Assembly (NCBI GenBank): GCA_002713205.1
Contig: PAVW01000008.1
Coordinates: forward strand, 1 to 20,995
Length of the DNA stretch: 20,995 nucleotides
Direction: 5' to 3'
Source of the DNA: Nitrososphaerota archaeon
GTDB lineage: Archaea > Thermoproteota > Nitrososphaeria > Nitrososphaerales > UBA57
The notes under the pieces are model-generated. The model did not search any database. It had not been told where the DNA came from and was given only the letters and a program-made list of their open reading frames with translations. Position numbers and translations under genes: made by a program. This document shows positions 2,490 through 20,321 of this stretch, piece by piece (positions within the stretch are counted from its first letter, which is position 1; every line of letters begins with the position of its first letter).

Positions 2490-2598
2490 AGGATTTAACG
2501 ATGATGTGTTTTGTTTAAAATCTTAGTCTCTCACTATGCATTACCTGAAATTAGAAGTTTTAGGACACTAATATTTGAACAAGTTTTACCATTTTTGA
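2490..2598 (+). repeat. Left arm of a ~109-bp inverted repeat (21-nt leader plus codons 1-29 of the 2511 gene); partner at 19045-19153
   Basis: Perfect blocks are shared with the partner: ttacctgaaattagaagttttagg (2541-2564 = revcomp of 19079-19102) and aacaagttttaccatttttga (2578-2598 = revcomp of 19045-19065). Confidence 0.85.
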
Positions 2599-7416: not shown

Positions 7417-7418
7417 TT

Positions 7419-8339
7419 TTATCCTAAAATTGAATCCACATTATCTTTTGTAAATATTTTTGATATTGGAACTTCTTTGTTATCATTAAAACTAATTCTT
7501 TTTAAAATTATTACACCTTTACCAGTACCAATTTTCACATTAAAATTATTTACATGCATAATCTTGCCAATACCCTTACTTTGTTCATTAGAGAATTCTG
7601 CACCCCAAATTATTAATTTTGACCCATTAAAAATTGTGTACGCACCAGGATATGGATGAGTAGTAGCACGAATAAGTGTATGAATTTCTTGTGAATTTCT
7701 TGACCAGTCTATAATTCCATCTTGCGGTCCCCGTTTTTCCCAATTTTCTATAAAATTAGAAACATCTTGTTTTTTTCTTGTATAATTTCCATTTTGAAGT
7801 TTTGTTAGATTATCTTGTATCATTTCTTTTCCAACAGATTCAACTTTTTTATAAACTGATGTTGCATCATCATTTGAGCTCAATTTAAAAGATCTTTGAT
7901 CAAGAATATCACCATTATCAGTTCCCTCTTCAATGAAAAAAAATGTTAACGCACTTGTTTTCAATCCCTTTAAAATTGACCATGGAATGGGTGCCCGTCC
8001 ACGATATTTTGGTAATTCGGTAGGGTGAGAACCAATCACACCTATTTTAGGTATAGAAATAATTTCAGAATTTAATAACTGTGACCAACCCATAACTAGT
8101 ATTATGTCTGGTTCTATTTTTTTAATAATTTCAATATTGTTTTGAGCGTTAATTTTATCTACTTTAATATTTTGTAAATTATACTTTGAACAAAGTTCAT
8201 CTAAAGATATAAAATCACTAATTTTTTCCTTCTTAGAATCATCATAACTGAACACAACTGAAATGTTCCAATTATTCTCTAGAATAGTTTTGAGTATTTC
8301 ATAACTAAATTTAACTCCTCCAATGAAAATAATTTTCAT
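7419..8339 (-). CDS. Formyltransferase (Fmt/ArnA-N/sugar N-formyltransferase-like)
   Basis: 306 aa. MKIIFIGG, PDIILVMGWSQLL, GVIGSHPTELPKYRGRAPIPWSI (compare Fmt INVHGSLLPRWRGAAPI, from memory) and GTDNGDIL (compare LDTGDM), plus a C-terminal Fmt-like domain. Confidence 0.85.
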   Translation of the reverse strand: MKIIFIGGVKFSYEILKTILENNWNISVVFSYDDSKKEKISDFISLDELCSKYNLQNIKVDKINAQNNIEIIKKIEPDIILVMGWSQLLNSEIISIPKIGVIGSHPTELPKYRGRAPIPWSILKGLKTSALTFFFIEEGTDNGDILDQRSFKLSSNDDATSVYKKVESVGKEMIQDNLTKLQNGNYTRKKQDVSNFIENWEKRGPQDGIIDWSRNSQEIHTLIRATTHPYPGAYTIFNGSKLIIWGAEFSNEQSKGIGKIMHVNNFNVKIGTGKGVIILKRISFNDNKEVPISKIFTKDNVDSILG

Positions 8340-8359
8340 GTATATCTAATTAAAAATCC

Positions 8360-8369
8360 TTTAATTAAA
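8360..8369. promoter_or_regulatory. Perfectly palindromic TATA-like element (TTTAATTAAA) in a 54-bp divergent spacer
   Basis: It is centred about 26 nt from the formyltransferase ATG (8339, minus) and about 29 nt from the NeuB-like ATG (8394, plus). It is its own reverse complement. Confidence 0.4.
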
Positions 8370-8393
8370 ATGTGCAACTAACAATCATACGAT

Positions 8394-9083
8394 ATGGTCT
8401 TTATTGTTGCAGAAATTGGAGTGAACTGGGACGGGGATTTTGACTTAGTGAAACAAATGATGAATGAATCAAAACTACTTGGATTAAATGCTGTGAAATT
8501 TCAAGCATTTACATTTGAGATGGTAAAAAATCATCCTGAATCTAATAGACTAATGAATTCATCAATTACCAAAGAAAATATAGAAAAAATTAATGATATT
8601 TCTCAAGAAGTTGGAATTAACTGGTTTTGTACTCCAATGTATCCAGATGCTGTTAATTTTTTAGATAGATTTGTTTCTAGATACAAAATAAGAGAATTTG
8701 ATGGTCGTGAAATAATTCAATCAAATCAAACTGATTTATTTCAAACTATTTATAAAAAACATAAGAACATATTCATAAGTTCTGAAACAGTTCCAGTTAA
8801 TTGTTCATTTTATAATGATCCACAGATCAAATGGCTTTATTGTATTCCTAAATATCCATGCGGTCTTGACGATATCGATTTTTCTCTTTTAAAACATTTT
8901 GATGGTTTTTCAAATCATTGTAATTTAATTGAGGCACCAATTCGTGCATTACATGAGGGTATTGAAATCCTTGAAATCCATGTTACTTCTGATAAAACTA
9001 AAGATTTCGTTGATAATAACGTGAGTTTTGATTATGATGAAATTAAAGACATCATGAAAGTAGCAAAAGTTATCAATTCATAA
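8394..9083 (+). CDS. NeuB-family nonulosonic acid synthase-like protein, TIM-barrel only (no SAF domain)
   Basis: 229 aa. FIVAEIGVNWDGDFDLVKQMMNESKLLGLNAVKFQAF aligns to the NeuB N-terminal block EIGxNHxG...VKxQ. WFCTP, YKIREFD, WLYCIPKYP, GFSNHCN and LEIHVTSD align to FISTP, YKIGSGE, LLHCxxxYP, GLSDHT and LERHFT of N. meningitidis NeuB (from memory), so both metal-ligand His positions are retained. The ORF ends at 9083 and only 95 nt of non-coding DNA follow. Confidence 0.7.
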   Translation: MVFIVAEIGVNWDGDFDLVKQMMNESKLLGLNAVKFQAFTFEMVKNHPESNRLMNSSITKENIEKINDISQEVGINWFCTPMYPDAVNFLDRFVSRYKIREFDGREIIQSNQTDLFQTIYKKHKNIFISSETVPVNCSFYNDPQIKWLYCIPKYPCGLDDIDFSLLKHFDGFSNHCNLIEAPIRALHEGIEILEIHVTSDKTKDFVDNNVSFDYDEIKDIMKVAKVINS

Positions 9084-9148
9084 AATTTAGATGGAAAATG
9101 ATAAAATCTTCTAGAAACACTACAGTTGATTTGTGTTAATAAACTAGA

Positions 9149-9160
9149 AATTATATATAT
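9149..9160 (+). promoter_or_regulatory. TATA-like box upstream of aminotransferase 1
   Basis: aattatatatat is preceded by a purine-rich agaaa (BRE-like) and lies 19-30 nt upstream of ATG 9179, consistent with a leaderless or very short-leader archaeal transcript. Confidence 0.45.
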
Positions 9161-9178
9161 TGAAAGAGAGATAATGAT

Positions 9179-10312
9179 ATGAAAAATTGGAAAATACCTT
9201 TATACAAAATCTATACAGATGACGAGGATGTAAATTTAATCACAAAGGTAATCAAAAGGGGCTCTTCTTGGGCATTAGGACCAGAAATTGAAGAATTTGA
9301 AAACGCAATTAAAAACTATGTTGGTGTTGATTATTGTGCAACTCTAAATTCTGGTACTTCTGCATTACATGCAACTTATTTAGCATATGGAATCAAAGAT
9401 GGTGATGAAGTTATAATACCATCATTTTCATTTATTTCCACAGCAAACTCTGTTATGTTTGTAAATGCAAAACCAATTTTTGCAGATATTGAAGAAACAA
9501 CACTTGGATTAAATCCAGAACTACTTGAAGAAAAAATTTCAAGTTCCACGAAAGCAATAGTCCCTATGGATTATGGTGGTCTTTCATGTAATATTTTTGA
9601 AATTAATAATGTTGCTAAGAATAATAATATTTTATTGATTGAAGATGGTGCAGAGGCATTAGGTTCATCTGTACATGGGAAAAAAGTTGGCAGTGTTTCT
9701 GATTCGACAATATTTAGTTTCTGTGGTAATAAAGTACTAACTACTGGTGAGGGCGGTGCAGTAGTGACAAATTCTAAAGATATCTATGAAAAAATAAAAA
9801 TGGTTCGCTCACACGGCAGAATTAGTCAAATTGATTATTTTAATGACCCAAAAGGATCACAGTATATAGAACTTGGCTATAATTGGAGGATGTCTTCTTT
9901 AACTGCAGCTTTAGGAATATCACAACTTGGAAAACTTGATAAAATTATTAAAATGAGGAAAGAAAATGCAGAATATATCTCAGCCCGACTCTCAAAATTT
10001 ACACAAATTACACCTTTAACTCCCCCTGTTGGGTATGATCATATTTATCAAATGTACACAATTAAACTGCCAGATAGAAAAATCCGTAACTCTCTACATA
10101 ATTATCTTTTAGATAAGAGAATCTTCTCAAAAATCTATTTTGAACCAATTCATTTAACTGATTTTTATCGCCAAAAATTTGGCATAAAAGATGGTGCATT
10201 ACCAATCACAGAAAAAATATCTCAATGCATACTGACAATTCCTATTTATCCGAATATGACTATGGAAGAAAAAACATATCTTGTTGAATCAATTTCTGAT
10301 TTTTTTGAATAA
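9179..10312 (+). CDS. PLP-dependent sugar aminotransferase, DegT/DnrJ/EryC1/StrS family (PseC/LegC/PglE-like)
   Basis: 377 aa. GPEIEEFENAIKNYVGVDYCATLNSGTSALHA, IIPSFSFISTANSV, DGAEALGS, FSFCGNKVLTTGEGGAVVTN (PLP lysine) and WRMSSLTAALGISQL. Confidence 0.9.
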   Translation: MKNWKIPLYKIYTDDEDVNLITKVIKRGSSWALGPEIEEFENAIKNYVGVDYCATLNSGTSALHATYLAYGIKDGDEVIIPSFSFISTANSVMFVNAKPIFADIEETTLGLNPELLEEKISSSTKAIVPMDYGGLSCNIFEINNVAKNNNILLIEDGAEALGSSVHGKKVGSVSDSTIFSFCGNKVLTTGEGGAVVTNSKDIYEKIKMVRSHGRISQIDYFNDPKGSQYIELGYNWRMSSLTAALGISQLGKLDKIIKMRKENAEYISARLSKFTQITPLTPPVGYDHIYQMYTIKLPDRKIRNSLHNYLLDKRIFSKIYFEPIHLTDFYRQKFGIKDGALPITEKISQCILTIPIYPNMTMEEKTYLVESISDFFE

Positions 10313-10336
10313 AACTATAACACTGAAAATAATCTT

Positions 10337-11215
10337 CTACGATAAATAGTGTTTAATTACCCACATATCTGGAAATTCTTCTGCATTATCTCTTTCAACA
10401 TCTGAAATTAAGATTTCATCCATTTTTTCACCCTGTCTTAAGCCTACCACCTTATGTTTTTTAGATATTTTATTAGCTAGTTCTTTTATTTTGTATGACT
10501 TCATTTTTGGCACAAATATCTCTCCTTGATTTATGAGCGGTATACATTTTATAATAAAATCAACAGCTTCACCAATATGGAAAAAATATCTTTTCATGGA
10601 TAAATTGGTAATTGATAGAGGCAAATTATCTTTGAACTCCTTATCCCAAACTTCAAATACATTTCCTCTAGTTTCGATAACATTGCCAAATCGGACGCTG
10701 GCAAATTTAGTATGTTCAACATGCATTCCAGCCCAACTAGTTAATCTCTCACCCAACTGTTTTGTTGTTCCATAAAGTGTGGATGCGTCTGCTGCTTTAT
10801 CGGTACTTATGTTTAGAAATTTAATTGGTTTATTACGAATTATAGCCTTTATAATATTTACAATTCCATTTATGTTAACATCAATTGTTTCAATCGGATT
10901 AAATTCTGAAATCTCAATATTTTTTACAGCAGCGGCATGTATGATTATATCTACATTATCACATGCCATGTTGATTCTGTCTTTATCAGTAATACTTCCA
11001 AGCAGAAGTCTTAATCTTGGATCATTTACGTCACGCTTTAATTTAAATAGCCCATATTCATCAATATCTAAAACTCTTATAGCTTTAATTGGATATTCTA
11101 AAAGATGTTTTGCCAGGGCAGTTCCAATACTTCCAGCTCCTCCAGTCAACAAGATTGTTTTATTTTTTAATTCTTTTTTAATATCTGATAGATTACTAGT
11201 GTTTTTTTTACGCAT
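10337..11215 (-). CDS. NDP-GlcNAc 4,6-dehydratase, short soluble Polysacc_synt_2 type (PseB/FlaA1/PglF/CapD-like)
   Basis: 292 aa. KTILLTGGAGSIGTAL, DPRLRLLLGSITD, HAAAVKNIEISEFNPIETIDVNING, STDKAADASTLYGTTK, RFGNVIETRGNV, GEIFVPKMKSYKIKELA and GLRQGEKMDE align block by block with H. pylori FlaA1/PseB as I recall it. Retaining versus inverting (Leg versus Pse) stereochemistry cannot be judged by eye. Confidence 0.85.
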   Translation of the reverse strand: MRKKNTSNLSDIKKELKNKTILLTGGAGSIGTALAKHLLEYPIKAIRVLDIDEYGLFKLKRDVNDPRLRLLLGSITDKDRINMACDNVDIIIHAAAVKNIEISEFNPIETIDVNINGIVNIIKAIIRNKPIKFLNISTDKAADASTLYGTTKQLGERLTSWAGMHVEHTKFASVRFGNVIETRGNVFEVWDKEFKDNLPLSITNLSMKRYFFHIGEAVDFIIKCIPLINQGEIFVPKMKSYKIKELANKISKKHKVVGLRQGEKMDEILISDVERDNAEEFPDMWVIKHYLS

Positions 11216-11352
11216 TTATTGCATCTCCAAATAAATCATTTTTCTAACATTTGCTCTAAAATCTTGCATATTAATAATTTCGTCTTTTTTTATTTTATTA
11301 TGTTTTAATTTTAGTCATATAATGAATGAATGCAACATAACATAATTCAATA

Positions 11353-11385: not shown

Positions 11386-12327
11386 ATGAAAAAATATAAT
11401 GTGATAGTGATTGGTTTAGGTTTAATCGGAATGAGGTATGGTATTGATCCAAAAAGAAAACAACCTGCAAGTCATATTGCTGCTATATTAGAAAATAAAA
11501 ATTTACAATTAATAGGAGTATGTGATACAGAGAAAAATGCAAGAGATCTTTTTACTGAAAAATATAAAAAAATACATGTTTTTGATAATTTTTCAGAACT
11601 TGCAAGTAAAATTAATCAGAAACAAATTGATTGTGATATTATAGTTATTTCTACTCCTGACTCAACTCATGTAGAGATTTTGAATTCTTTAGTTGAAAAT
11701 CTCAACCATATAGAAAAGTCTGTGATTATATTTTGCGAAAAACCATTAACACCAGATTTGTATACTGCCAAACAAGTAAAATCTCTCATAAAAAATCCTC
11801 ATATCAAAATTGTTGTAAACCATACTAGGAGATGGAGTGAGATTTGGAATGAAGCTCACATATTATCTAAAGACATTGGGCATATTAAAAAGGCAGCATT
11901 TTATTTTTCAACAACTGCTGAAAATAAAGAAATTAATCAAATTAGAGACGGTATTCATATTGCTGATTTAATGAATTGGTTTAATATTTTAGAAAAAACA
12001 ACGATAAACAGATTAGATATACCATATTTTATTTATGATTTCTATCTTTGGGGTTCAAAAGGAAAGATAGAAATTTTATCAAATGGCCAAATTCTAAATT
12101 TCTTTAAATCAAAGGAATCTTCTAAATATGAAGGATATCAAGATTTGGAATTAATTTGCACCAAAAAAGTTAACGAATCATTTTTTTCTAAAATCTATAA
12201 AGAATTTGTAGAATTTTTGGATGGAAGTATTTCTTCACTCTCTACCAATATTGACGATGCTATATCTGCATTATCTACTTTTGAGAAATATGTATTTGAT
12301 ATGGAGAAATCTAAAACTAGGGGATGA
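11386..12327 (+). CDS. Gfo/Idh/MocA family NAD(P)-dependent sugar oxidoreductase
   Basis: 313 aa. Rossmann motif VIVIGLGLIG, VISTPDSTHVEI and the FCEKPL (EKP) motif. An SD-like gtgaggt sits at 11373-11379, 6 nt before the ATG. Confidence 0.8.
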   Translation: MKKYNVIVIGLGLIGMRYGIDPKRKQPASHIAAILENKNLQLIGVCDTEKNARDLFTEKYKKIHVFDNFSELASKINQKQIDCDIIVISTPDSTHVEILNSLVENLNHIEKSVIIFCEKPLTPDLYTAKQVKSLIKNPHIKIVVNHTRRWSEIWNEAHILSKDIGHIKKAAFYFSTTAENKEINQIRDGIHIADLMNWFNILEKTTINRLDIPYFIYDFYLWGSKGKIEILSNGQILNFFKSKESSKYEGYQDLELICTKKVNESFFSKIYKEFVEFLDGSISSLSTNIDDAISALSTFEKYVFDMEKSKTRG

Positions 12328-12333
12328 AACATT

Positions 12334-13503
12334 TTGACTAAACGATTTAACGACAAGGAAATTGAAGCAGTAAAAAATGTCATAGAAAACGGCAAATATC
12401 TTTCAGGATTTACAACAAAGTTTAGAGGAGGTGAAGAGGTACAGAAATTTGAAAAGGAATTTGCTAAATACATTGGTGTGAAGTATGCACTATGTGTAAA
12501 CTCTGGGACATCTGCATTATTTATTGCATTCAAGACTGCTATTCAATATGGTAAAAAAACTAAAAATTCTAAATTAATAAAACCAAATATCCATCTTCCT
12601 GCATATACTTTTACTGCTGATCCAAGTGCTGCGCTTCAAGTGGGTGGTAAAATAGTTTTTGAAGATATTGATAAGAAATCATACTGTATGTTGAAGCCTA
12701 AAATACACACTCCGATATGTGTTCCAACACATTTGTTAGGAAATGCAATACAGCCATCAAATTTTGGAAAAACTGAATTTTTAATAGAAGACTGTTGTCA
12801 ATCTTTGGGAACTCGGGTTGGTCAAAGAATGGTGGGTAGTTTTGGAGCAATGAGCATATTTAGTTTTCAAGAAACAAAACATATTACAACACTTGGAGAA
12901 GGTGGAATGATATGTTCTGATAATGAAGAATTAATTGAGATTGCGGCTGCAATTAGAAATCATGGTGAATATTACCAACAAAAAAATTATTTTGGCGGTA
13001 ATTTTCGTATGACAGAAGCGCAAGCCGCATTTGGAAGAATACAACTAAAAAAAATCAATTCTATTCTGAAAATGTTTAGAACTAATGCTAAACAAATAAT
13101 AAAAAAACTTCCAAACGGTATTATTCCACCATACATAAACCATAAAGTAGAACACTCATTTTTAGTAATTGGTTGTTTATATGACAAAAAAATAATTGGT
13201 GTTGATAGAGAAATTTTCTTAAAAAAACTTACAGCAAACAGAAAGCATATTCTAGAAATGGATGAAAAATCAGATATAAAAGGTATTAATATGAAATCTG
13301 GGAAATTAATTTCTTCAGGTTATTCAATTCCTCTTTATAACGTTCCACTCTTCAAGAAATTTAAGCCTAAGAATGGTTGTAAAAATGTAGAAGACATAAT
13401 AAAAAAATCATTTTGGATGGACATTCACAAGTTTAGAACTAGTGAAGAAATATCTGAAGAAATTGATATTTTAAATGATACTATAACAAAATTTCAACAA
13501 TGA
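12334..13503 (+). CDS. Second DegT/DnrJ/EryC1-family sugar aminotransferase
   Basis: 389 aa with a TTG start 6 nt after the oxidoreductase stop. GEEVQKFEKEFAKYIGVKYALCVNSGTSALFIA, EDCCQSLG, FSFQETKHITTLGEGGMICS and FRMTEAQAAFGRIQL. Its stop overlaps the next start (ATGA at 13500-13503). Confidence 0.85.
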   Translation: MTKRFNDKEIEAVKNVIENGKYLSGFTTKFRGGEEVQKFEKEFAKYIGVKYALCVNSGTSALFIAFKTAIQYGKKTKNSKLIKPNIHLPAYTFTADPSAALQVGGKIVFEDIDKKSYCMLKPKIHTPICVPTHLLGNAIQPSNFGKTEFLIEDCCQSLGTRVGQRMVGSFGAMSIFSFQETKHITTLGEGGMICSDNEELIEIAAAIRNHGEYYQQKNYFGGNFRMTEAQAAFGRIQLKKINSILKMFRTNAKQIIKKLPNGIIPPYINHKVEHSFLVIGCLYDKKIIGVDREIFLKKLTANRKHILEMDEKSDIKGINMKSGKLISSGYSIPLYNVPLFKKFKPKNGCKNVEDIIKKSFWMDIHKFRTSEEISEEIDILNDTITKFQQ

Positions 13504-14210
13504 AAATTATATCTATAATAACTGCACGCTCTGGCTCTAAGGGGGTTCCCCACAAAAACATCCGAAATCTTGGTGGAATACCACTGTTAGGTTGGGGTGT
13601 GAAAGCAGCCAGTAAATCGAAGATGATTAACAAAATTATACTATCAACTGATTCAGAAGAATATTTCAAAATTGCAAATTCATTTAATGACGAAATAATT
13701 TTTCATAAACGAACTCCCGAGTTAGCAGAAGATGTTCCTTCCGAGTTGGTATTGTTAGATGTGATTAATAAATTCGATGAACTTTTTGATGATGATGCTA
13801 TTATTGTTTTAATACAACCAACTACACCGTTTGTATCACATATTGATATTGACACGTGTATTGAAAAATTAATAAAAAATCCACATGTGAATAGTTGTAT
13901 TACTGTAAAAGAAGTAACAGAACATCCTGAATGGGTAATAAATAAAAAAGAAAATTTTGATGATATTGGAGAATGTCTTGATCTATCTGGAAGTTTTTCC
14001 GTGAGGCAAAATCTGAAAAAAAGATGGATTGCTAATGGTGGTGCATATGCAATAAGAAAATCATTTTTTGAAAAAAATAAAAAAATAATAGATGAAAAAA
14101 ATACTCTTGTTCATGAAATGCCAAAAATAAAAAGTTTAGACATAGATGAAGAATATGATTTCATGTTATGTGAATTATTAGCAAATTCTGGATTAGTGAA
14201 TCCAGAATAA
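13500..14210 (+). CDS. neuA: CMP-nonulosonic acid synthetase (acylneuraminate cytidylyltransferase; NeuA/LegF/PseF-like)
   Basis: 236 aa. IISIITARSGSKGVPHKNIRNLGGIPLLGW carries the ARxGSKxxxxKN signature of CMP-sugar cytidylyltransferases; VLIQPTTPF is also present. It is translationally coupled to the preceding aminotransferase. Confidence 0.9.
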   Translation: MKIISIITARSGSKGVPHKNIRNLGGIPLLGWGVKAASKSKMINKIILSTDSEEYFKIANSFNDEIIFHKRTPELAEDVPSELVLLDVINKFDELFDDDAIIVLIQPTTPFVSHIDIDTCIEKLIKNPHVNSCITVKEVTEHPEWVINKKENFDDIGECLDLSGSFSVRQNLKKRWIANGGAYAIRKSFFEKNKKIIDEKNTLVHEMPKIKSLDIDEEYDFMLCELLANSGLVNPE

Positions 14211-14231
14211 GTTTTTAAAATTATTGATTAG

Positions 14232-14243
14232 CTTATATTAAAG
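14232..14243 (+). promoter_or_regulatory. TATA-like box upstream of the small ORF / DUF115 / B12-rSAM unit
   Basis: cttatattaaag lies 28-39 nt upstream of ATG 14271. This suggests the DUF115 and B12-rSAM genes can be transcribed independently of neuA. Confidence 0.4.
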
Positions 14244-14270
14244 ACAAATTAAGTTATTGTTAGTAGAAAA

Positions 14271-14435
14271 ATGAAAAAAAAACTATTATGTGGTAATTAT
14301 GAACCAAAAGTTAATCCTGAAGTAGAAATCTCTGAACCAAAAAACGAACCTGAATTTGAAACAGAAGCACTCAAACATCTTGGTGGAAGCATAGCATTTG
14401 TGAGGGGTGATAAGTTCTATGAAGAAAATAACTGA
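14271..14435 (+). CDS. Hypothetical small acidic protein (54 aa), not in the supplied ORF track
   Basis: ATG at 14271 to TGA at 14433-14435 reads MKKKLLCGNYEPKVNPEVEISEPKNEPEFETEALKHLGGSIAFVRGDKFYEENN. A TATA-like box (cttatattaaag, 14232-14243) lies about 30 nt upstream, the same geometry as other genes here. The ORF overlaps the start of the DUF115 gene in another frame. There is no homology evidence, so it could be a chance ORF in the 196-nt spacer. Confidence 0.3.
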   Translation: MKKKLLCGNYEPKVNPEVEISEPKNEPEFETEALKHLGGSIAFVRGDKFYEENN

Positions 14436-15321
14436 TAATGAACTTCTTGATATTATAACCAAAAGTACATTAGAAATTCATGGTCCTATGTGGCTTGAGA
14501 ATATACAATATAATGAAAAAAAATATGGGTTCAACGATACATTAAATGGAATTAAAATAAAATCGTCTAAAACATTAGTAATTGCTGCAGGTCCTACTTT
14601 CAAGAAAGTTTTTGGAAAAAACTTTCAAGAGATTATGAAAAAAAGAAATGAAATAACCATTGTGGCATGTGATGGAGCATTATCAATGCTTACCGAGATT
14701 AACTGTATTCCGGACTATGTTGTTTCCGTAGATGGTGATCCAATAATTGCAAATTTTTATAAAAAATCTAAAAAAATTCTTCGAGGTGTAACTGTGATTC
14801 TAGCTACATCAATTAATCCAAATGTAGTCAAGGAATGTATTGATGCTGGTGCTAAAATAAAATGGGTTCAACCATTCTTCAGAAATAATTCTGAAGAAGA
14901 ATTCTTTAGAGATGGAATTACATCTATAAAGATGGGAGGAAATGTTGGAACTGCATCATACATTCTAACAGCATTTGCACTTAAAGGGAATCCAATTGGG
15001 TTAATGGGAATAGAATTTGCGTGGAGTGATGATACACCATATAGCGATACACAATATTATAACCAGCTTATGAAATCATTTGATAAAAACCAAGAAAAAG
15101 TTGAAGAACAATTTATTCATGTTAATAATCCAAGAAATGGTAATGTATACATTGCAGATCCAGTGTATTATGCGTATTTCTTAATGCTTAAAGAGATTTG
15201 GAGTGAACTTCCTTCAGAAATTAAGGATAATACCTATAATCTAACTAGTGAGGGGATACTAAATATTGCCGATTTAAAATATATACATATTAAAAAGTTC
15301 TTAGAATTAGAACAGAAATGA
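14419..15321 (+). CDS. MptE-like / DUF115 (Maf, MAF_flag10) domain protein; candidate CMP-NulO-dependent protein glycosyltransferase
   Basis: The ORF is open from 14404. The track uses GTG 14407; I prefer ATG 14419, which is preceded by an SD-like gaggggtga (14402-14410). The core KTLVIAAGPTFKK ... ITIVACDGALSMLTEINCIPDYVVSVDGDP fits the G-P-S/T ... D-x-A ... P-D-x-x-x-x-D signature of the DUF115 domain. Its stop overlaps the next gene's start. Confidence 0.75.
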   Translation: MKKITDNELLDIITKSTLEIHGPMWLENIQYNEKKYGFNDTLNGIKIKSSKTLVIAAGPTFKKVFGKNFQEIMKKRNEITIVACDGALSMLTEINCIPDYVVSVDGDPIIANFYKKSKKILRGVTVILATSINPNVVKECIDAGAKIKWVQPFFRNNSEEEFFRDGITSIKMGGNVGTASYILTAFALKGNPIGLMGIEFAWSDDTPYSDTQYYNQLMKSFDKNQEKVEEQFIHVNNPRNGNVYIADPVYYAYFLMLKEIWSELPSEIKDNTYNLTSEGILNIADLKYIHIKKFLELEQK

Positions 15322-16916
15322 AAATATTATTTATTAATCCAGTAGTAAGATATTTCGATGAACCTCGTCATGTTCCATTAGGCATGCTTCAATTAATGGG
15401 CATACTAGAAAGGGATCATCCTAAAGTAAAATTTCAGTTGTATGATGCCAATGCATTTAGAATTGATAATATGGAAACTGGTGAAACAAAAGGATTAGAT
15501 CAAGTTCTGTCAGCAGAAGAGTTTGATGTTATTGCAATTGGAGGATTAATTACAGCGTATAGATATATTCGACAAGCCGTTAAAAGATGTAAACAATTAC
15601 AACCACATGCAAAGATAATTGCAGGTGGAGGTTTCTATACTGCAACACCATATGATATGATGGATCTTCTACAAGAAATTGATTATGGAGTAGTAGGAGA
15701 AGCGTATTTGACTCTGCCTGAACTTTTAACCGTAATAGATAAAAATGAAGAGCCTTCAAACGTAAAAGGAATTTTTTATCGTAAAGATGGAATAATAAAA
15801 TTTTCTGAACCAAGAGAATTAATTCCAGATATGGATTGGCTACCTTTTCCAGCATACAAATATGCACCACTTGAAATCTATTTCAAAAATTCTGGTATAT
15901 TAATGAGCGAAGTATCAATGACATCGCAAAAGAGACTAGATGCATGTATGAGTTTATCTTGTCCATTTCTTTGTAGGTTTTGTTGGGATTTAGGAATTAC
16001 ATCCAATACAAAAATGAAAGTTGTAGATGGAAAACCTGAACCAGTGACAGGTAGACCTGGAAGAGACAGTATAATTAGGCAGCATTCACCTGAATATTTT
16101 GCAAAATATATCAAACATCTACGGGATGATTATTTAGAAATTCCTAGTGATGATAATGGCAATGGTATTGGAAGTCCTGTTGATTTTATAGCATTAGTTG
16201 ATGAAAATGTTGTAGCTCATGATGCTCAAACTGGATTTACATGGTTAAAAGGCATAAAGGAAGAATTATGGAAACAGGATCTTGTTCCAAATTGTGTAAA
16301 AAAAGGAGTTCCTCATGATTCAAAAATTTGTGATGGGCCACATTTTGGAGGTGCCAGTCATGCTGGTCTAGTGAATAAAGAGATGTTAAAAACTTTGAAA
16401 GATATTGGTTTTACTTATTTGGATTATGGTCTTGAGCATTGGGATCGTAAAATACTAAAAAATCTTGGTAAAGGTACTACACTAGAAGCTAATGCAAGAT
16501 GTATTCAATGGACATTAGAATCAGGAATTAGTCCTATTCCAAATCAAATAATTATGTTTCCAGAAGAAGATTGGGATACACTAAATACAATGATAGATGC
16601 GTGGGAAAAATACAATATAGTTAGTACTCCGTTTATTTGTACACCATATCCAGGTTCAGAGTGGTACATAACATACAAAGACCTCATTCTACAACAATAC
16701 AATAATAATTTAGAATCATTCATACTGGATTTAGAAGATGCAACGAAGGTTACAGCATTACTGACAAAAGATTTTTCTCCAGCAGAGGCTGTAGGTATAC
16801 AAAATATTATGTCTCAAGCTGCAAGAACAGGAGATTTTAAGAATGCAAGAAGGTTATTGGCAATTTCGAAGAGAATGCATGAATCTCGTTTAAGTTTGGC
16901 CATGAGTACAAAGTAG
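15318..16916 (+). CDS. B12-binding-domain radical SAM protein (class B architecture; putative methylase)
   Basis: 532 aa. The N-terminal Rossmann-like cobalamin-binding-type domain has KILFINP, FDVIAIGGLITAYRYI and AKIIAGGGF. It is followed by SLSCPFLCRFCW (CxxxCxxC). ATGA overlap with the DUF115 gene at 15318-15321. Confidence 0.85.
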   Translation: MKILFINPVVRYFDEPRHVPLGMLQLMGILERDHPKVKFQLYDANAFRIDNMETGETKGLDQVLSAEEFDVIAIGGLITAYRYIRQAVKRCKQLQPHAKIIAGGGFYTATPYDMMDLLQEIDYGVVGEAYLTLPELLTVIDKNEEPSNVKGIFYRKDGIIKFSEPRELIPDMDWLPFPAYKYAPLEIYFKNSGILMSEVSMTSQKRLDACMSLSCPFLCRFCWDLGITSNTKMKVVDGKPEPVTGRPGRDSIIRQHSPEYFAKYIKHLRDDYLEIPSDDNGNGIGSPVDFIALVDENVVAHDAQTGFTWLKGIKEELWKQDLVPNCVKKGVPHDSKICDGPHFGGASHAGLVNKEMLKTLKDIGFTYLDYGLEHWDRKILKNLGKGTTLEANARCIQWTLESGISPIPNQIIMFPEEDWDTLNTMIDAWEKYNIVSTPFICTPYPGSEWYITYKDLILQQYNNNLESFILDLEDATKVTALLTKDFSPAEAVGIQNIMSQAARTGDFKNARRLLAISKRMHESRLSLAMSTK

Positions 16917-16955
16917 AAATTATTTGTAATTATATTATTTTAATAATTCAAAAAA

Positions 16956-17999
16956 TTAATCTGAAATATATGAAACATTTTCAATACAGCTCTTACAAGC
17001 AGGATTTTTAGTATAGTCCCCATTTTTATGCATCTCACGCAATTTTTTCATTTTTTCAGAGTTCCAAATCTCACCTAATGATTCTTTTTTCCAGTTACCC
17101 ATAACTAAATCAACTGCATAAAAACTACAACACCCTAAGACATCACCATTTCCTCTTAGTGTCATTCTCTTAAATGGTTCAGGACAATGAAATTTTTTTG
17201 GTGGCTGTCGAGTATTTTCTAAAGCTATCTCATCTTTTTTTGAAGGATCCTTAAATTTTCCATCACCAAATGGGTCTAATAACCTTTGAGCACCTAAGCT
17301 ATCAACCCTATCTTTCCAATAGTCTACAAATTGATCATATTCATGATCATTTATCTTCGATCTAACAAAACTTAAGCGTAATTTTGGTAATTTTGATTTC
17401 ATATTTTTTCTTATTTCCATAAAATCATGAATGTTCTTTACTGTAGCTTTAAGATTTCCACCTACACGAATCTTTTCATATGTTTCTTCAGTTACCGCAT
17501 CTAATGAAATATTAATTTTTGTGAGTCCAGATTCTATTAGTTTTTTCGACATTTCTTTAGTCAGTAATGTACCATTAGTAGTTATTATAACATCTAAAAT
17601 TCCAACGTCAGATGCATATTTAATAAATTGATCAATATCTTGGCGAATTAACGGTTCATTAATGTAACAAAGTCTAATAGATTTTGTACCTTGTGATACA
17701 GCTTCTTTTATTAATTTTTTATAATCTTCAAAAGTAAACCAATCTTCCTTTTTTTCAACTGTAGTTTCCGTAGACCAGGTACACATTGGACATCTCAAAT
17801 TACACGAATAATTCAACTCAAGCTCTAAATGGGAAGGATATTTTGTCTCAATTTCCAATCGTGAACACTTTTCCCAATTCTCTCTATACGAATTCCAGCG
17901 TTCAGCACCTTTAGAGTCAATAAAATCTTTCTCATATTCATCAGTAAAATAAAGATTTTCTGAAAATCCACCATCAAAACTTTTTTTTCCTTTAATCAA
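16956..17999 (-). CDS. Radical SAM protein with partial SPASM / twitch-type C-terminal auxiliary-cluster domain
   Basis: 347 aa with a TTG start (a TAA lies immediately upstream in frame). YSCNLRCPMCTW gives CxxxCxxC. The C-terminus HCPEPFKRMTLRGNGDVLGCC ... MGNWKKESLGEIWNS ... ACKSCIENVSYISD gives C-X12-G-X4-C ... C-X2-C, and then the protein ends. Confidence 0.85.
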   Translation of the reverse strand: MIKGKKSFDGGFSENLYFTDEYEKDFIDSKGAERWNSYRENWEKCSRLEIETKYPSHLELELNYSCNLRCPMCTWSTETTVEKKEDWFTFEDYKKLIKEAVSQGTKSIRLCYINEPLIRQDIDQFIKYASDVGILDVIITTNGTLLTKEMSKKLIESGLTKINISLDAVTEETYEKIRVGGNLKATVKNIHDFMEIRKNMKSKLPKLRLSFVRSKINDHEYDQFVDYWKDRVDSLGAQRLLDPFGDGKFKDPSKKDEIALENTRQPPKKFHCPEPFKRMTLRGNGDVLGCCSFYAVDLVMGNWKKESLGEIWNSEKMKKLREMHKNGDYTKNPACKSCIENVSYISD

Positions 18000-18094
18000 T
18001 TAGAAAAATATTAAATTTTAGATATTTAATGGTTGAGTCATAATAAAGAATATAATTTTAGAATACTACTGAATTAGTGAACTACTCTGAGGTG

Positions 18095-19003
18095 TTATTT
18101 TTTTAATGCCTTCATATGAAGATAACCTTCATTGAATAAAATTTTAGCCAAATCTGATTCATAATTGTGATATAGCGGGCTCAAAAATTGTCTAATGTTG
18201 TTAAATTTTGGATATCTTGTTAATCTTTTAATATCTACAAATCCGTTATTTTCTAGCCAGTTTACAACATCATCTATTGGCGTTTCGTCATAAATCGGTG
18301 TTTGTATTCGATCTTTTATTGTTAAAATTAAATCATTATCAATCAATGATGTAATTGTATCTAAAGGAATTTTATTTATTATCGGTTCATCATGTTTTTC
18401 TAATTCAGTATATATCAAGTTAAGCGATTCCATAATTTTTTGTTCGGTTAAATTATCTATCAATGATTTAAAATTCAAATTTTTTGTATATTCATTTCTA
18501 AGCACTTTAGTTATTTGTGAAAAAAGTCCACCAGCTCCAAATATTGAAAAATATAATGTGCCCCCATGTTTTGTCACTCTCGATAATTCTGAAAGCCCAC
18601 CAAACAAATCTGTTGTACTATGCAAAACACCGTTACAATACACAAAATCAAAGAAATTATCTTCATATGGAATATCTAAAACACTTCCACTTTTTAATTC
18701 ATATTTTCCTTCAAATTTTTTCAAAAATTTTTGTGCTGTTTCTATAAATGATGGTTCAACATCTAAATCAAATGCATGAACTTTTTTTGCTCCCAAATTT
18801 ATTAACGCTCTGGTTCCGTTTACATTTGAACCACATCCTGCATCTAAACAAATTTTATCATTAAAGAATGATTCATCTACCTGAAAGAATTCATGAGAAA
18901 TCATTGAGGTTATTCTATCATATATGGATTCATCATTTCCTTGTTCACAATGAATTTCGTGATAAACTTCTCTTGTTCGTTTTTCGATTTCTTCAGAATC
19001 CAT
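18095..19003 (-). CDS. Class I SAM-dependent methyltransferase
   Basis: 302 aa. Motif I is ICLDAGCGSNVNGTRAL; post-I is KVHAFDLD; also FDFVYCNGVLHS and KHGGTLYFS. It is co-directional with, and 95 nt upstream of, the SPASM radical SAM gene. Confidence 0.85.
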   Translation of the reverse strand: MDSEEIEKRTREVYHEIHCEQGNDESIYDRITSMISHEFFQVDESFFNDKICLDAGCGSNVNGTRALINLGAKKVHAFDLDVEPSFIETAQKFLKKFEGKYELKSGSVLDIPYEDNFFDFVYCNGVLHSTTDLFGGLSELSRVTKHGGTLYFSIFGAGGLFSQITKVLRNEYTKNLNFKSLIDNLTEQKIMESLNLIYTELEKHDEPIINKIPLDTITSLIDNDLILTIKDRIQTPIYDETPIDDVVNWLENNGFVDIKRLTRYPKFNNIRQFLSPLYHNYESDLAKILFNEGYLHMKALKK

Positions 19004-19044
19004 TGTTAATTAAATCCAGACCAAGCCACCAACTTAAAAAAGTA

Positions 19045-19153
19045 TCAAAAATGGTAAAACTTGTTAAAATATTATTTCCCTAAAACTTCTAATTTCAGGT
19101 AACGTATAATTGGTGATTAAAATTTTAACCAAACCACACCATCGTTAAATCCT
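19045..19153 (-). pseudogene. Stump (leader plus ~29 codons, in-frame TAA at codon 23) of a diverged homologue of the gene at 2511
   Basis: The reverse complement of 19045-19153 aligns without gaps to 2490-2598 (hand count: 94/109 identical). It translates from TTG (19132-19130) as VKILITNYTLPEIRSFREIIF*QVLPFL, versus FKILVSHYALPEIRSFRTLIFEQVLPFL for the intact gene. Confidence 0.8.
19045..19153 (-). repeat. Right arm of the ~109-bp inverted repeat (decayed copy)
   Basis: See the left arm. There are 15 substitutions and no indels over 109 nt in my hand alignment. Similarity ends abruptly at both borders. Confidence 0.85.
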
Positions 19154-19193
19154 GTAGATTTTTTACAAAAAACATTACCGTATAATCAAATGT

Positions 19194-19203
19194 ATTATAT
19201 TTA
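19194..19203 (+). promoter_or_regulatory. TATA-like box upstream of gmd
   Basis: attatattta lies 27-36 nt upstream of ATG 19230, with no purine-rich SD between them. Confidence 0.45.
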
Positions 19204-19229
19204 CCGTTCTTAGTTAAAATCATAATATC

Positions 19230-20321
19230 ATGAAGCGTGCTCTAATAACAGGTATTACTGGCCAAGATGGGGCTTATCTAGCAGATTTATTATTAAAAAA
19301 GGGTTACAAAGTCTTTGGTACATTTAGACGAACATCAACGCCTAATTTTTGGAGATTGCAGAATCTAGGAATATATTCTCAAATAAAACTAATCCCTGCA
19401 GATTTACTTGACATGGGTTCTATGATAGAAGCAATCAAGGTTTCTGATGCTGATGAAATATATAATTTAGCGGCTTCTAGTTTTGTCGGTACATCATTTG
19501 AACAATCAGTTGGAAATGCTGAAATCACAGGTCTTGCTGTTACAAAACTTTTAGAAACAATAAGATTTCTTAATGAAGATATAAAATTTTACCAAGCATC
19601 AAGTAGTGAAATGTATGGTGATAACAAATTTATATTTCAAAATGAGAAAACACCATTTATGCCATCTAGCCCATATGGAATTGCAAAACTTTATGCTCAT
19701 TGGATTACTGATATTTACAAAAAATCGTACAACATGTTCGCTGTTAATGGAATATTATTTAACCATGAATCGCCTCTTCGTGGACTAGAATTTGTTTCAA
19801 GAAAAATTACTAATGGTGTAGCAGAAATTTTTCTGGATCGAAAAAAGGAATTGGTTTTAGGGAATCTACAGGCAAAGAGAGATTGGGGATATGCACCTGA
19901 GTATATGGAAGCCGTACATTCAATGCTTCAACAAGATAAGCCAGATACTTTTGTAATCAGTACTGGTGAAACACATAAAGTTCAAGATTTTGTCAAGTTA
20001 GCATTTGACCTGGTTGGATTAAACTGGAAAAAATATGTTAAAACTGATAAACGCTTCTTTCGTCCGTTAGAAGTTAATTATTTACGCGGAAATAACAAGA
20101 AAGCAAAAAGTAAACTGGGTTGGAAACCAAAAATAACTTTTGAAAAACTTGTAAAGATTATGCTAGATGAAGACATAAAAAGATGGAAAATGTTTTTGGA
20201 CGGCAAAACATTTCCTTGGGATGCACCTCTTTATCCTAGTGAATCAAAATTTATTACCAGACTTAGTGATGAAAATAAAAAAATGAAATTAACCCATTCA
20301 CACTCAAAAAAGAAAAAATAG
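19230..20321 (+). CDS. gmd: GDP-mannose 4,6-dehydratase
   Basis: 363 aa. KRALITGITGQDGAYLADLLLKKGYKVFGTFRRTSTPNFWRLQNL, YQASSSEMYG, SPYGIAKLYAHW (YxxxK), NGILFNHESPLRG and RDWGYAPEYMEA are near-canonical Gmd blocks. It has a Lys-rich C-terminal tail. Confidence 0.92.
   Translation: MKRALITGITGQDGAYLADLLLKKGYKVFGTFRRTSTPNFWRLQNLGIYSQIKLIPADLLDMGSMIEAIKVSDADEIYNLAASSFVGTSFEQSVGNAEITGLAVTKLLETIRFLNEDIKFYQASSSEMYGDNKFIFQNEKTPFMPSSPYGIAKLYAHWITDIYKKSYNMFAVNGILFNHESPLRGLEFVSRKITNGVAEIFLDRKKELVLGNLQAKRDWGYAPEYMEAVHSMLQQDKPDTFVISTGETHKVQDFVKLAFDLVGLNWKKYVKTDKRFFRPLEVNYLRGNNKKAKSKLGWKPKITFEKLVKIMLDEDIKRWKMFLDGKTFPWDAPLYPSESKFITRLSDENKKMKLTHSHSKKKK

Follow-up and report, generated by a model that had tools for sequence, protein, structure and literature searches.

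A candidate legionaminic-acid-type NulO locus in a Nitrososphaerota archaeon that may have recruited two separate radical SAM enzymes

Radical SAM methylases of class B, among them GenK, GenD1 and Fom3 as well as TokK, CysS, TsrM and MgmA, combine an N-terminal B12-binding-type Rossmann domain with a CxxxCxxC barrel and a helical C-terminal cap. The substrate of Fom3 (HEP-CMP) is CMP-activated, and GenK likewise belongs to the members acting on sugar or CMP-activated compounds. AprD4, the radical SAM 1,2-diol dehydratase of apramycin, also joins a B12-like N-terminal domain to a radical SAM barrel and acts on an amino sugar, independently of cobalamin and with the reductase AprD3 as its partner. 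As regards NulO systems, PtmH takes the nucleotide sugar CMP-Leg5Am7Ac as its methylation substrate (PMC3766260), a Maf-type DUF115 enzyme works with an 89-aa adaptor encoded in cis, GlfM (bioRxiv 10.1101/2023.12.03.569772), and mass spectrometry has revealed CMP-linked Leg/Pse-type sugars with a backbone extended by CH2, the origin of which is unexplained (bioRxiv 10.64898/2026.04.20.719630; PMC8157484). Our literature search for a radical SAM step in Neu, Leg or Pse (NulO) biosynthesis found no characterised case, in agreement with the original prediction made for the locus described below.

Here we analyse a window, i.e. the whole stretch of 20,995 nucleotides of contig PAVW01000008.1, which we read, with a probability of about one half, as a legionaminic-acid-type NulO locus into which two separate, uncharacterised radical SAM enzymes have been recruited. 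The relevant genes are as follows:

6271-7416, minus strand: NeuC-like hydrolysing 2-epimerase (profile matches)
7419-8339, minus strand: formyltransferase (profile matches)
8394-9083, plus strand: NeuB without SAF domain (profile matches)
9179-10312, plus strand: first DegT aminotransferase (profile matches)
10337-11215, minus strand: PseB-like 4,6-dehydratase (profile matches)
11386-12327, plus strand: GFO/IDH/MocA oxidoreductase (Pfam)
12334-13503, plus strand: second DegT-family aminotransferase (Pfam)
13500-14210, plus strand: CMP-NulO synthetase-like cytidylyltransferase (Pfam CTP_transf_3, 91.5 bits)
14271-14435, plus strand: conserved small protein, 54 aa (ORF and homologue HMM)
14407-15321, plus strand: short DUF115/MptE-like protein, about 300 aa (Pfam MptE-like, 77.2 bits)
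15318-16916, plus strand: B12-binding-domain radical SAM enzyme, 532 aa (Pfam B12-binding and Radical_SAM)
16956-17999, minus strand: twitch-type (partial SPASM) radical SAM enzyme, 347 aa (Pfam Radical_SAM and SPASM)
18095-19003, minus strand: class I SAM methyltransferase, 302 aa (Pfam Methyltransf_11 and related)

The core NulO genes (6271-11215) all fall well short of the cut-offs of the Pse/Leg equivalogs, which therefore do not fix the sugar stereochemistry; the cytidylyltransferase does not reach the PseF model either (106 bits, cut-off 205.7). Its gene start overlaps the stop of the second DegT gene, and the GFO and DegT genes (11386-13503) lie on the same strand as the small ORF, DUF115 and B12-domain radical SAM genes, closely packed against them. 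The order GFO-DegT-CTP_transf_3-small ORF-DUF115-B12-domain radical SAM is kept in Nitrosopumilaceae relatives (L001-L003, L012, L013). The window is a mosaic glycan island, in which genes for GT1, flippase-like, carbamoyltransferase and GDP-mannose dehydratase proteins are found as well.

The original prediction had placed three SAM-using genes directly beside CMP-NulO synthetase and DUF115 genes. All three ORFs and both neighbours are present, the motifs CPFLCRFC, CNLRCPMC and C-X12-G-X4-C ... C-X2-C can be read in the translations, and the stop of DUF115 overlaps the start of the B12-domain gene in the sequence ATGA (15318-15321). Pfam, the cysteine motifs and an alignment with BtrN agree with the proposed class-B-type, twitch-type and class I architectures. 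The three genes do not, however, behave as one unit: the two radical SAM families associate independently, the B12-domain enzyme being present in only 7 of 22 loci of close twitch homologues, and the methyltransferase family occurs in 2 of 80 B12-domain loci and in 0 of 36 twitch loci. The twitch gene is convergent with the B12-domain gene, and the methyltransferase gene lies upstream of the twitch gene; both are on the minus strand, on which the prediction was silent, and hence do not belong to the operon of the B12-domain enzyme. Also missed were the 54-aa ORF and the unit which it opens, and this unit changes the mechanistic picture.

The conserved unit around the B12-domain gene consists of the 54-aa protein, the short DUF115 protein and the radical SAM enzyme. 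The small ORF, first gene of this cassette, sits between the cytidylyltransferase and DUF115 genes, and its end is overlapped by 29 or 17 nt, depending on the DUF115 start (GTG 14407 or ATG 14419). Its product bears an N-terminal L-K/C-G-N-Y and a C-terminal F-E-x-x-A-x-x-x-L-G-G-S-I-A-F-V motif, in which G-N and L-G-G-S are invariant. In 69 of 72 genome loci an HMM search located a homologue immediately before the DUF115 gene; in a large database the family comprises 1249 protein clusters, all of about 55-90 aa, named 'hypothetical' and with no Pfam domain in any of them. In at least 56 of the 80 loci the B12-domain gene in turn directly follows a co-directional DUF115 gene. On one metagenomic contig (P0485/L130) the small protein is naturally fused to DUF115 and the B12-domain gene follows directly. 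The DUF115 protein itself matches the PseD model weakly (45.8, cut-off 670) and the archaeal HPPK structure 8sd5 with E 7e-4, in both cases in the nucleotide-binding core only. In one locus (L129) there is, besides, a long Maf with its own gene and a TPR domain, and this speaks against the short DUF115 protein being the final transferase. We propose that the cassette genes are translationally coupled and that the B12-domain enzyme would be the catalytic member, that DUF115 would partner it by binding a nucleotide or CMP-sugar, and that the small protein would be an obligatory adaptor or subunit of DUF115.

The small protein could instead be the substrate of a RiPP-like or protein-modification system, in which DUF115 puts the NulO of the locus on the conserved Ser of LGGS, or on another residue, and the radical SAM enzyme adds a methyl group either to this peptide or to the sugar bound to it. 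Maf-type DUF115 proteins are described in the literature to O-glycosylate Ser/Thr with NulOs, the motifs mentioned above are invariant, and the small ORF is linked to the radical SAM gene as tightly as DUF115 is; in two loci (L004, L056) it abuts that gene without DUF115 between, an arrangement which suits a peptide substrate or subunit no less than the model proposed above. The best NCBIfam matches of the B12-domain enzyme are also RiPP C-methyltransferase families, rSAM_ocin_1 and ApyD, but at scores far under the cut-offs (70.7 vs 281.85 and 49.3 vs 750). Since the sequence of the small protein is highly conserved between phyla, unlike typical RiPP cores, its neighbourhood holds no conserved protease or exporter, its fusion to the DUF115 N-terminus better fits a subunit or adaptor than a released product, and the cassette stands mid-way in sugar-biosynthesis operons, we consider such a system improbable.

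Linkage was counted over 80 genome loci of the B12-domain enzyme (72 for the small ORF), belonging to Nitrosopumilaceae and more than 10 bacterial phyla; the hosts include Dehalococcoidia, Rokubacteria/Methylomirabilota, Nitrospira, Acidobacteria, CPR, Omnitrophota, Elusimicrobia, Planctomycetes, Proteobacteria and Myxococcales. DUF115 is present in 76 of these loci, CTP_transf_3 (CMP-NulO-synthetase-like) in 67, NeuB in 64 and NeuC in 54, and the other recurring neighbours, PglD-type acetyltransferase, CBS-NTP_transferase and HisH/HisF-like amidotransferase, complete a Leg-pathway gene set. The cassette is found within single co-directional Leg operons, often between the synthase or acetyltransferase and CMP-synthetase genes, a position more in keeping with a step of biosynthesis than with a late modification of the glycan. 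It very probably works on the NulO pathway and, judging from operon placement, would modify the sugar during its biosynthesis or at the CMP-sugar stage. That both radical SAM families might target something else, such as another glycan sugar, a lipid carrier or a protein acceptor, and lie near NulO genes through island clustering only, would suit the mosaic nature of the window. Yet co-location in islands hardly explains a linkage to NeuB, NeuC and CTP_transf_3 that holds over so many phyla and gene orders, or the place of the cassette inside one operon, and we regard this explanation as very unlikely, also in view of the twitch loci discussed below.

The B12-domain enzyme exceeds the Pfam cut-off for B12-binding (39.9 bits, cut-off 32.1) and matches Radical_SAM with 42.4 bits. 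Among 86 family sequences the cluster cysteines C215-PFL-C219-RF-C222 are conserved in 100%, and the Rossmann loops (D43-x-N45-x-x-R48, G75, T79, Y81, GGG103-105) in at least 95%, which suggests ligand binding by the N-terminal domain. In the same set, a second motif (C326/H333/C338/H342/H348) shows at least 94% conservation; we could assign it no counterpart in the known methylases, and it might represent a second metal site and a different chemistry. Homologue searches with the window ORFs reach E = 0, and together with the invariant motif residues (86 B12-domain and 21 twitch sequences) this puts the observation far beyond chance. The AF2 model (pLDDT 89.5) matches TsrM, OxsB, MgmA, CysS and TokK in Foldseek with E 1e-15 to 1e-19, and AprD4 too, in all cases at 13-17% identity. 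The profile and structure searches proposed with the original prediction recovered the Radical_SAM, B12-binding and SPASM domains and the class B folds, but the top TM-score among the PDB matches belongs to AprD4 (6fd2; TMq 0.66, TMt 0.76, rmsd 4.4), and no curated class B methylase model of NCBIfam is reached.

As for what we infer of the substrate, cobalamin use and chemistry of the radical SAM enzymes, the leading candidate for the B12-domain enzyme would be a radical methylation at an unactivated carbon that depends on cobalamin, although we hold it at slightly less than even odds. A plain tailoring methylase has no obvious need for a small protein and a DUF115 partner, which counts against this model. 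The enzyme could alternatively use the 5'-deoxyadenosyl radical only, with or without cobalamin, like AprD4, OxsB, HpnJ and BchE, and dehydrate or deoxygenate, rearrange or cyclise a NulO or its hexose precursor. The TM-scores of AprD4, the position of OxsB among the top matches and the partial matches to the HpnJ and BchE models (about 50 bits) are consistent with this; the extra Cys/His motif could bind metal or substrate, and a keto intermediate could be taken on by the neighbouring GFO and DegT enzymes, in the way that AprD3 follows AprD4. On the other hand, by Foldseek E-value the better matches are true cobalamin enzymes, namely TsrM, OxsB, MgmA and CysS, near-invariant Rossmann loops are unexpected in a vestigial cofactor domain, and deoxygenation at C3 and C9 of Leg-type sugars already has known routes, so non-methylating chemistry seems unlikely to us.

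If methylation takes place, C-methylation would bring a 9-deoxy NulO to ten carbons, making it a candidate for the 'C10 higher-carbon ulosonic acids'; that the product is in fact a C10 sugar we find doubtful. Magnetospirillum gryphiswaldense is the organism with C10 sugars. NeuB could instead be the source of C10 sugars, by condensing PEP with a seven-carbon sugar.

The twitch enzyme (Radical_SAM 70.4 bits, SPASM 55.9 bits) carries the core motif C66-NLR-C70-PM-C73 and a C-terminus of the form C272-X12-G285-X4-C290(C291) ... C335-X2-C338, with the stop 9 residues on. C66, C70, C73, C272, C290, C291, C335 and C338 are invariant in 21 family members, in all of which the chain stops no more than about 16 residues after the CxxC, with no further cysteine. 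The fold neighbours are MoaA, BlsE, SkfB, BtrN and DesII. On contigs longer than 2.8 kb, 19 of 20 close homologues adjoin CTP_transf_3, usually with NeuB upstream, so that this enzyme is linked to NulO loci independently of the B12-domain one, and the co-occurrence with NulO genes which the prediction had singled out for checking is found for both families across many genomes. More distant homologues (30-36% identity) are only sometimes beside NulO genes, and that of Campylobacter molothri belongs to a heptose/MeOPN capsule locus and has no NulO gene less than 10 kb away, which speaks for a target outside the NulO pathway. We suggest a separate NulO-pathway enzyme with one auxiliary cluster, similar to BtrN, BlsE and DesII, which would probably oxidise or epimerise a sugar carbon. 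The two uncharacterised radical SAM families in Leg-type operons, from marine archaea to a dozen bacterial phyla, point to an undescribed radical step in the synthesis of cell-surface sugars.

The methyltransferase matches Methyltransf_11, 25, 31, 12 and 23, all above cut-off, with no NCBIfam equivalog and no match to a Pse/Leg-associated methylase model (TIGR03587, 18 bits vs 112). With the methyltransferase that adjoins the twitch homologue of Campylobacter it has only the generic fold in common. It may be a strain-variable decoration enzyme and, by analogy, could act like PtmH on a CMP-activated NulO.

Compared with the known systems, the B12-domain enzyme has the domain architecture of class B methylases and a whole-chain fold match to TsrM, CysS, TokK and MgmA, and the genes around it imply that, like Fom3 and GenK, it acts on a sugar or CMP-sugar; it differs in its remoteness from the solved members and curated models, in the C/H motif at 326-348, and in its obligatory pairing with DUF115 and 54-aa proteins, which no characterised class B enzyme displays. 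AprD4 is equally remote (13% identity), and unlike its cobalamin-independent domain the Rossmann loops here are near-invariant, while the partners are DUF115 and the small protein instead of a reductase. The twitch enzyme shares with BtrN the CX3CX2C core and exactly four auxiliary cysteines, which align, and its fold neighbours BtrN (TMt 0.74-0.77), BlsE and DesII are all sugar-acting; SkfB, anSME and PqqE were compared as well. The twitch enzyme resembles BtrN in sequence only at the core motifs (E about 1e-13) and stays under the cut-off of the NCBIfam twitch subfamily model (82 vs 170). It also has about 55 extra residues at its N-terminus and the additional invariant C291 beside a cluster ligand, and its context is NulO rather than aminoglycoside. 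The flagellin NulO glycosyltransferases Maf, PseD and PseE have the DUF115/MptE-like core in a NulO locus in common with our DUF115, and the GlfM-Maf-2 pair, like the cassette, joins a small cis-encoded partner to a TPR-less DUF115 enzyme. However, Maf proteins reach about 600 aa or more against about 300 aa here, GlfM is a four-helix bundle, as which the 54-aa protein is not recognisable, the cassette hosts include non-flagellated lineages, unlike the flagellin setting, and the B12-domain radical SAM enzyme, always attached here, is not reported for Maf systems. Finally, PtmH (Cj1325) performs N-methylation by ordinary SAM chemistry, and the methyltransferase of the window is not conserved with the locus, but PtmH and Legionella ORF 8 do show, as a precedent, that a SAM enzyme encoded in the locus can add methyl groups to a NulO already activated with CMP.

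The window, with a G+C content of about 30%, is a nonulosonic acid (NulO)/glycan island, and the following of its genes are needed for the analysis:

2511-3791, plus strand: GT-B-like protein with weak Epimerase_2/Glyphos_transf matches
3802-4446, minus strand: PIG-L deacetylase
4515-6230, minus strand: carbamoyltransferase
7419-8339, minus strand: formyltransferase
8394-9083, plus strand: NeuB-family synthase, 229 aa, without the C-terminal SAF domain
13500-14210, plus strand: CMP-NulO-synthetase-like gene (CTP_transf_3)
14271-14435, plus strand: unannotated small protein, 54 aa, between the cytidylyltransferase and DUF115 genes and overlapping the DUF115 start
14407-15321, plus strand: short DUF115/MptE-like protein
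15318-16916, plus strand: radical SAM protein with B12-binding domain (B12-rSAM), 532 aa; Pfam B12-binding and Radical_SAM, both above curated cut-offs
16956-17999, minus strand: partial-SPASM radical SAM protein (twitch rSAM), 347 aa; Pfam Radical_SAM and SPASM, above curated cut-offs
18095-19003, minus strand: methyltransferase, 302 aa; Pfam class I methyltransferase domains, above curated cut-offs

The island also encodes a GT1 glycosyltransferase, a flippase-like membrane protein, NeuC, a DegT aminotransferase and a PseB-like dehydratase. The five Pfam families of a legionaminic/pseudaminic acid (Leg/Pse) locus, i.e. NeuB-family synthase, hydrolysing 2-epimerase/hydrolase, 4,6-dehydratase, aminotransferase and CMP-synthetase, occur together in the window. 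None of the window proteins reached the Pse/Leg equivalog level of the NCBIfam models (PseB 232 vs. 407.75, PseC 296 vs. 423.5, LegC 246 vs. 420, PseF 106 vs. 205.7, NeuB 85 vs. 399.65), and with scores so far under the cut-offs the exact sugar and its stereochemistry are therefore not fixed by the models; the NeuC-type rather than PseG-type enzyme suggests a Leg-like route. The NeuB of relatives L001 and L002 has 342-343 aa with the SAF domain, while the short form (232 aa) recurs in relatives L009 and L011, so it is a lineage feature and not a pseudogene. Among the NulO genes lie those for the PIG-L deacetylase, carbamoyltransferase and formyltransferase. In a Leg cluster of Ca. Kuenenia, a deacetylase and a formyltransferase are linked to NulOs in which an N-formyl group occurs beside a free amine (SugarBase preprint, bioRxiv 10.64898/2026.04.20.719630), and by this precedent the NulO of the archaeon may bear formyl, free-amine or carbamoyl groups. 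The GT-B-like protein is a candidate NulO transferase. Its homologues in L001 (11577-12833, minus strand) and L002 (11632-12921, minus strand) are located directly downstream of the B12-rSAM gene and convergent with it, a slot taken in the window by the twitch rSAM and methyltransferase genes; this difference in position between the window and its Nitrosopumilaceae relatives indicates modular shuffling of the island. Two ORFs, 10779-11234 (plus strand, 151 aa) and 12195-12533 (minus strand, 112 aa), are antisense to or overlap the PseB-like and GFO/DegT genes; they resemble the shadow ORFs of AT-rich genomes rather than genes. A promoter/terminator scan of 14100-19300 was discarded, as its hits were at chance level and its sigma-70 models are inapplicable to an archaeon.

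The conserved unit in this region is a previously unnoticed cassette of three genes, encoding the small protein, DUF115 and B12-rSAM. In the window they end a co-directional, tightly packed series (GFO oxidoreductase, DegT, CTP_transf_3, small ORF, DUF115, B12-rSAM), and the DUF115 stop and B12-rSAM start share an ATGA at 15318-15321, as the original prediction had read it. Its three SAM-using ORFs are likewise present as described, with regard to coordinates, domains and cysteine motifs, in the window sequence and in Pfam. B12-rSAM loci were collected from one genome per species, and HMMs built from the window proteins were searched against the ORFs of the 80 loci listed out of 128 matches. 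These 80 come from archaea (Nitrosopumilaceae) and from Dehalococcoidia, Rokubacteria/Methylomirabilota, Nitrospira, Acidobacteria, CPR Yanofskybacteria, Omnitrophota, Elusimicrobia, Planctomycetes, several Proteobacteria and Myxococcales. A DUF115 gene was found in 76 of the 80 listed loci, directly upstream of B12-rSAM on the same strand in at least 56; of the four loci lacking it, two are on contigs that start at the rSAM gene and two have only 1-2 kb of upstream sequence. Small-protein homologues lie directly 5' of DUF115 in 69 of the 72 listed loci with enough upstream sequence. The same 80 loci contain CTP_transf_3 (67), NeuB (64), NeuC (54) and GFO (49), and when the other neighbours were clustered without supervision, the remaining members of the Leg gene set emerged: a PglD-type acetyltransferase, a CBS-NTP_transferase (PtmE-like) and a HisH/HisF-like amidotransferase. 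In two loci reached through the small protein (L128 and L129) the cassette is embedded in one co-directional operon, between the NeuB/acetyltransferase genes and the CMP-synthetase gene; L129 additionally encodes an 833-aa Maf, separate from the cassette, that carries a TPR domain.

Judging from these linkage data, the cassette very likely has its function in NulO metabolism (probability of roughly 0.85). Its operon position favours a biosynthetic or CMP-sugar stage, and action on another component of the glycan, in an island that also holds glycosyltransferase genes, is improbable. The attachment of radical SAM chemistry to a NulO pathway, which was the core of the original prediction, is well supported by comparative genomics, as the co-occurrence proposed for checking it was found for both rSAM families.

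For the twitch rSAM, CTP_transf_3 is adjacent in 19 of 20 contigs longer than 2.8 kb (from 22 metagenomic contigs with twitch homologues of at least 64% identity), the usual order being NeuB -> twitch <- CTP_transf_3. The idea that the three SAM-using genes form one unit did not hold: B12-rSAM is present on only 7 of the 22 twitch contigs, the twitch family occurs in 11 of the 80 listed B12-rSAM loci, and in the window the twitch rSAM and methyltransferase genes are on the minus strand, convergent with B12-rSAM. The methyltransferase is incidental, with its family found in 2/80 listed B12-rSAM loci and 0/36 twitch loci. A more distant twitch relative (L007, 10001-11032) lies in a heptose/MeOPN capsule locus of Campylobacter molothri and is followed by an overlapping methyltransferase gene; a conserved twitch-methyltransferase pair was nevertheless dropped, since the window methyltransferase shares only a generic fold with this Campylobacter neighbour. 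The phase-variable rSAMs of the C. fetus glycan region, annotated only as 'MoaA/NifB/PqqE/SkfB family', may be related to the twitch family. A twitch rSAM of Patescibacteria (P0148) is 65% identical to the archaeal one, which speaks for lateral transfer of this gene; together with the Campylobacter occurrence, the archaeon-CPR identity suggests lateral transfer of glycan-tailoring genes.

The twitch rSAM has the CNLRCPMC motif (C66/C70/C73) and, at the C-terminus, C272-X12-G-X4-C290 and C335-X2-C338, with the stop 9 residues further on. The SPASM Pfam match (55.9 bits) and the CX3CX2C core followed by a shortened SPASM domain assign it to the twitch enzymes, although it scores 82 bits against a cut-off of 170 with NCBIfam N_Twi_rSAM (NF033640). 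The four C-terminal cysteines align with the twitch cysteines of BtrN and are the predicted ligands of a single auxiliary [4Fe-4S] cluster, in agreement with what had been proposed for this protein. Along with C291 they are invariant in 21 twitch-family members, and in all 21 aligned proteins the chain terminates no more than about 16 residues after the CxxC, without another cysteine and without CX5CX3C. The full seven-cysteine SPASM motif (CX9-15GX4C - CX2CX5CX3C - C) is absent, only CX12GX4C(C) and CX2C being present, and all SPASM maturase models score far under their cut-offs. The structural model (pLDDT 84.6) resembles MoaA, BlsE, SkfB, BtrN, anSME, DesII and EpeE. We raise it as an idea only that C291, beside the cluster-ligand-aligned C290, might donate a hydrogen atom in the manner of radical epimerases. 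A defence role was rejected, as PADLOC gave only generic viperin-core similarity.

The B12-rSAM was found to have the class B architecture assigned to it beforehand. Pfam PF02310 matches residues 18-136 (39.9 bits, cut-off 32.1), where the AF2 model (pLDDT 89.5) has a Rossmann fold, and the Radical_SAM match (42.4 bits) includes CPFLCRFC (C215/C219/C222), a CxxxCxxC motif in a partial TIM barrel. In an alignment of 86 sequences these three cysteines are 100% conserved, and the Rossmann-domain loops D43-x-N45-x-x-R48, G75/T79/Y81 and GGG103-105 at least 95%, which we take as evidence that the N-terminal domain would bind a ligand. A further motif inside the barrel, C326-x6-H333-x4-C338-x3-H342-x5-H348 (at least 94% conserved in the same alignment), may serve as an extra site for metal or substrate; no equivalent could be assigned to it among the class B enzymes known so far. 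None of the NCBIfam models tested (rSAM_ocin_1, a RiPP C-methylase, and ApyD, HpnJ, HpnR, BchE, PhpK, KedN5, BzaD, MgmA) reached its cut-off, the best scoring 70.7 bits against 281.85 and the others at most 53 bits against 251-750, and phmmer against PDB sequences matched CysS alone (E 4e-4). Judged by sequence, the family is distinct and unnamed. At E <= 1e-3 it numbers 993 clusters, the bacterial members being 40-45% identical; the nearest named homologue, 70% identical, is from a Nitrosopumilaceae archaeon, as are the best genome loci.

Methylation of an unactivated carbon would be the most economical reaction for a class-B-type rSAM, and we hold it to be plausible, slightly short of an even bet. 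Whole-chain Foldseek matches join the model to the cobalamin enzymes TsrM, OxsB, MgmA, CysS and TokK (E 1e-15 to 1e-19). TM-scores were highest for AprD4; this sugar diol dehydratase binds no cobalamin despite its B12-like domain, showing that a B12-type fold can be without this cofactor. Chemistry of the non-methylating AprD4/OxsB type is rather unlikely. Methylation of a 9-deoxy NulO would result in a ten-carbon skeleton. CMP-activated Leg/Pse-type sugars with a backbone marker larger by one CH2 ('C10') have been reported by Kleikamp et al. 2020 and in the 2026 SugarBase preprint, from Magnetospirillum gryphiswaldense and, at lower abundance, Methanococcus, with no biosynthetic explanation offered (PMC8157484; bioRxiv 10.64898/2026.04.20.719630). 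It is possible, though doubtful, that the product of the cassette corresponds to these sugars.

In agreement with the original prediction, no radical SAM step in a NulO pathway was found in the literature searched: no paper joins radical SAM with nonulosonic, and searches on legionaminic/pseudaminic acid with radical SAM, radical or cobalamin gave irrelevant matches or unannotated gene mentions, namely radical SAM ORF 13-c of some Legionella Sg1 LPS loci and the phase-variable C. fetus rSAMs. PtmH/Cj1325 N-methylates CMP-Leg5Am7Ac (PMC3766260), so that tailoring at the CMP-sugar level is established. This protein was considered as an existing radical SAM NulO methylase and rejected; it is described as a putative N-methylating methyltransferase, with no radical SAM or B12 domain mentioned.

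Nonulosonic acids are the terminal sugars on the surface glycans of many microbes, where they influence how hosts, phages and the immune system recognise the cell, and to our knowledge their known biosynthesis uses polar chemistry only. A radical SAM cassette in NulO operons would add C-H functionalisation to this toolbox. It spans roughly a thousand protein clusters each for the rSAM and the small protein, its carriers include ecologically dominant nitrifiers (Nitrosopumilaceae, Nitrospira), Rokubacteria, Dehalococcoidia and CPR bacteria, and it offers a specific gene candidate, open to testing, for the 'higher-carbon (C10) ulosonic acids' of the 2020 and 2026 mass spectrometry. If the enzyme is a methylase, surface-glycan structure would be tied to cobalamin supply in major B12 producers or scavengers.

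The small protein matches no Pfam family and belongs to a family of 1249 clusters of 55-90-aa 'hypothetical proteins' in a large protein database, with an N-terminal L-K-G-N-Y/F and a C-terminal F-E-x-x-A-x-x-x-L-G-G-S-I-A-F-V motif. When 1.84 billion representatives were searched exhaustively by HMM, a single fusion was obtained, P0485 (410 aa; L130, 206-1963), in which the small protein is joined in frame to the DUF115 N-terminus; its DUF115 part is 29% identical to that of the window over the whole length, and a B12-rSAM of the window's family begins one base past its stop. P0485 comes from one short metagenomic contig, and an assembly or frameshift artefact is possible. Fusion and gene order argue for joint action of small protein and DUF115 as a single unit; the role that we prefer for the two is that of an adaptor or of presenting the nucleotide sugar. 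Two Chloroflexota loci have the small ORF right against the rSAM gene, an arrangement compatible with a peptide-directed system having the small protein as substrate, which we regard as unlikely. There is a slim chance that the three proteins form a machine of an undescribed kind, in which the 54-aa protein would serve as scaffold for covalent attachment: DUF115 would load it with the NulO, probably on the invariant LGGS serine, and B12-rSAM would carry out radical chemistry on the tethered sugar or peptide. If so, this would amount to a radical-SAM-dependent pathway, templated by a small protein, whose product is a new sialic-acid-like sugar (with ten carbons or modified in another way) or a glycopeptide, and whose conservation extends from the archaeal Nitrosopumilaceae to CPR bacteria.

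The cassette also yields a new family of small proteins, and it gives short DUF115 proteins a role other than that of Maf. The DUF115 protein has the Maf-type central domain (PF01973, MptE-like, 77.2 bits, cut-off 34.6) without the full Maf architecture, matching the PseD model at 45.8 against 670 over profile positions 213-447 only. Maf-type flagellin NulO glycosyltransferases have about 600 aa or more, often with a C-terminal TPR, whereas this protein has 300-304 aa. A TPR-less Maf (Maf-2) needs the cis-encoded 89-aa adaptor GlfM, a four-helix bundle (bioRxiv 10.1101/2023.12.03.569772). The location of the small protein just 5' of DUF115 and its natural fusion would fit an adaptor; with 54 aa and a long variable linker, it is too small for such a bundle. 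The enzymes fall within known superfamilies, but their families are unnamed, and their partnership and pathway are unreported.
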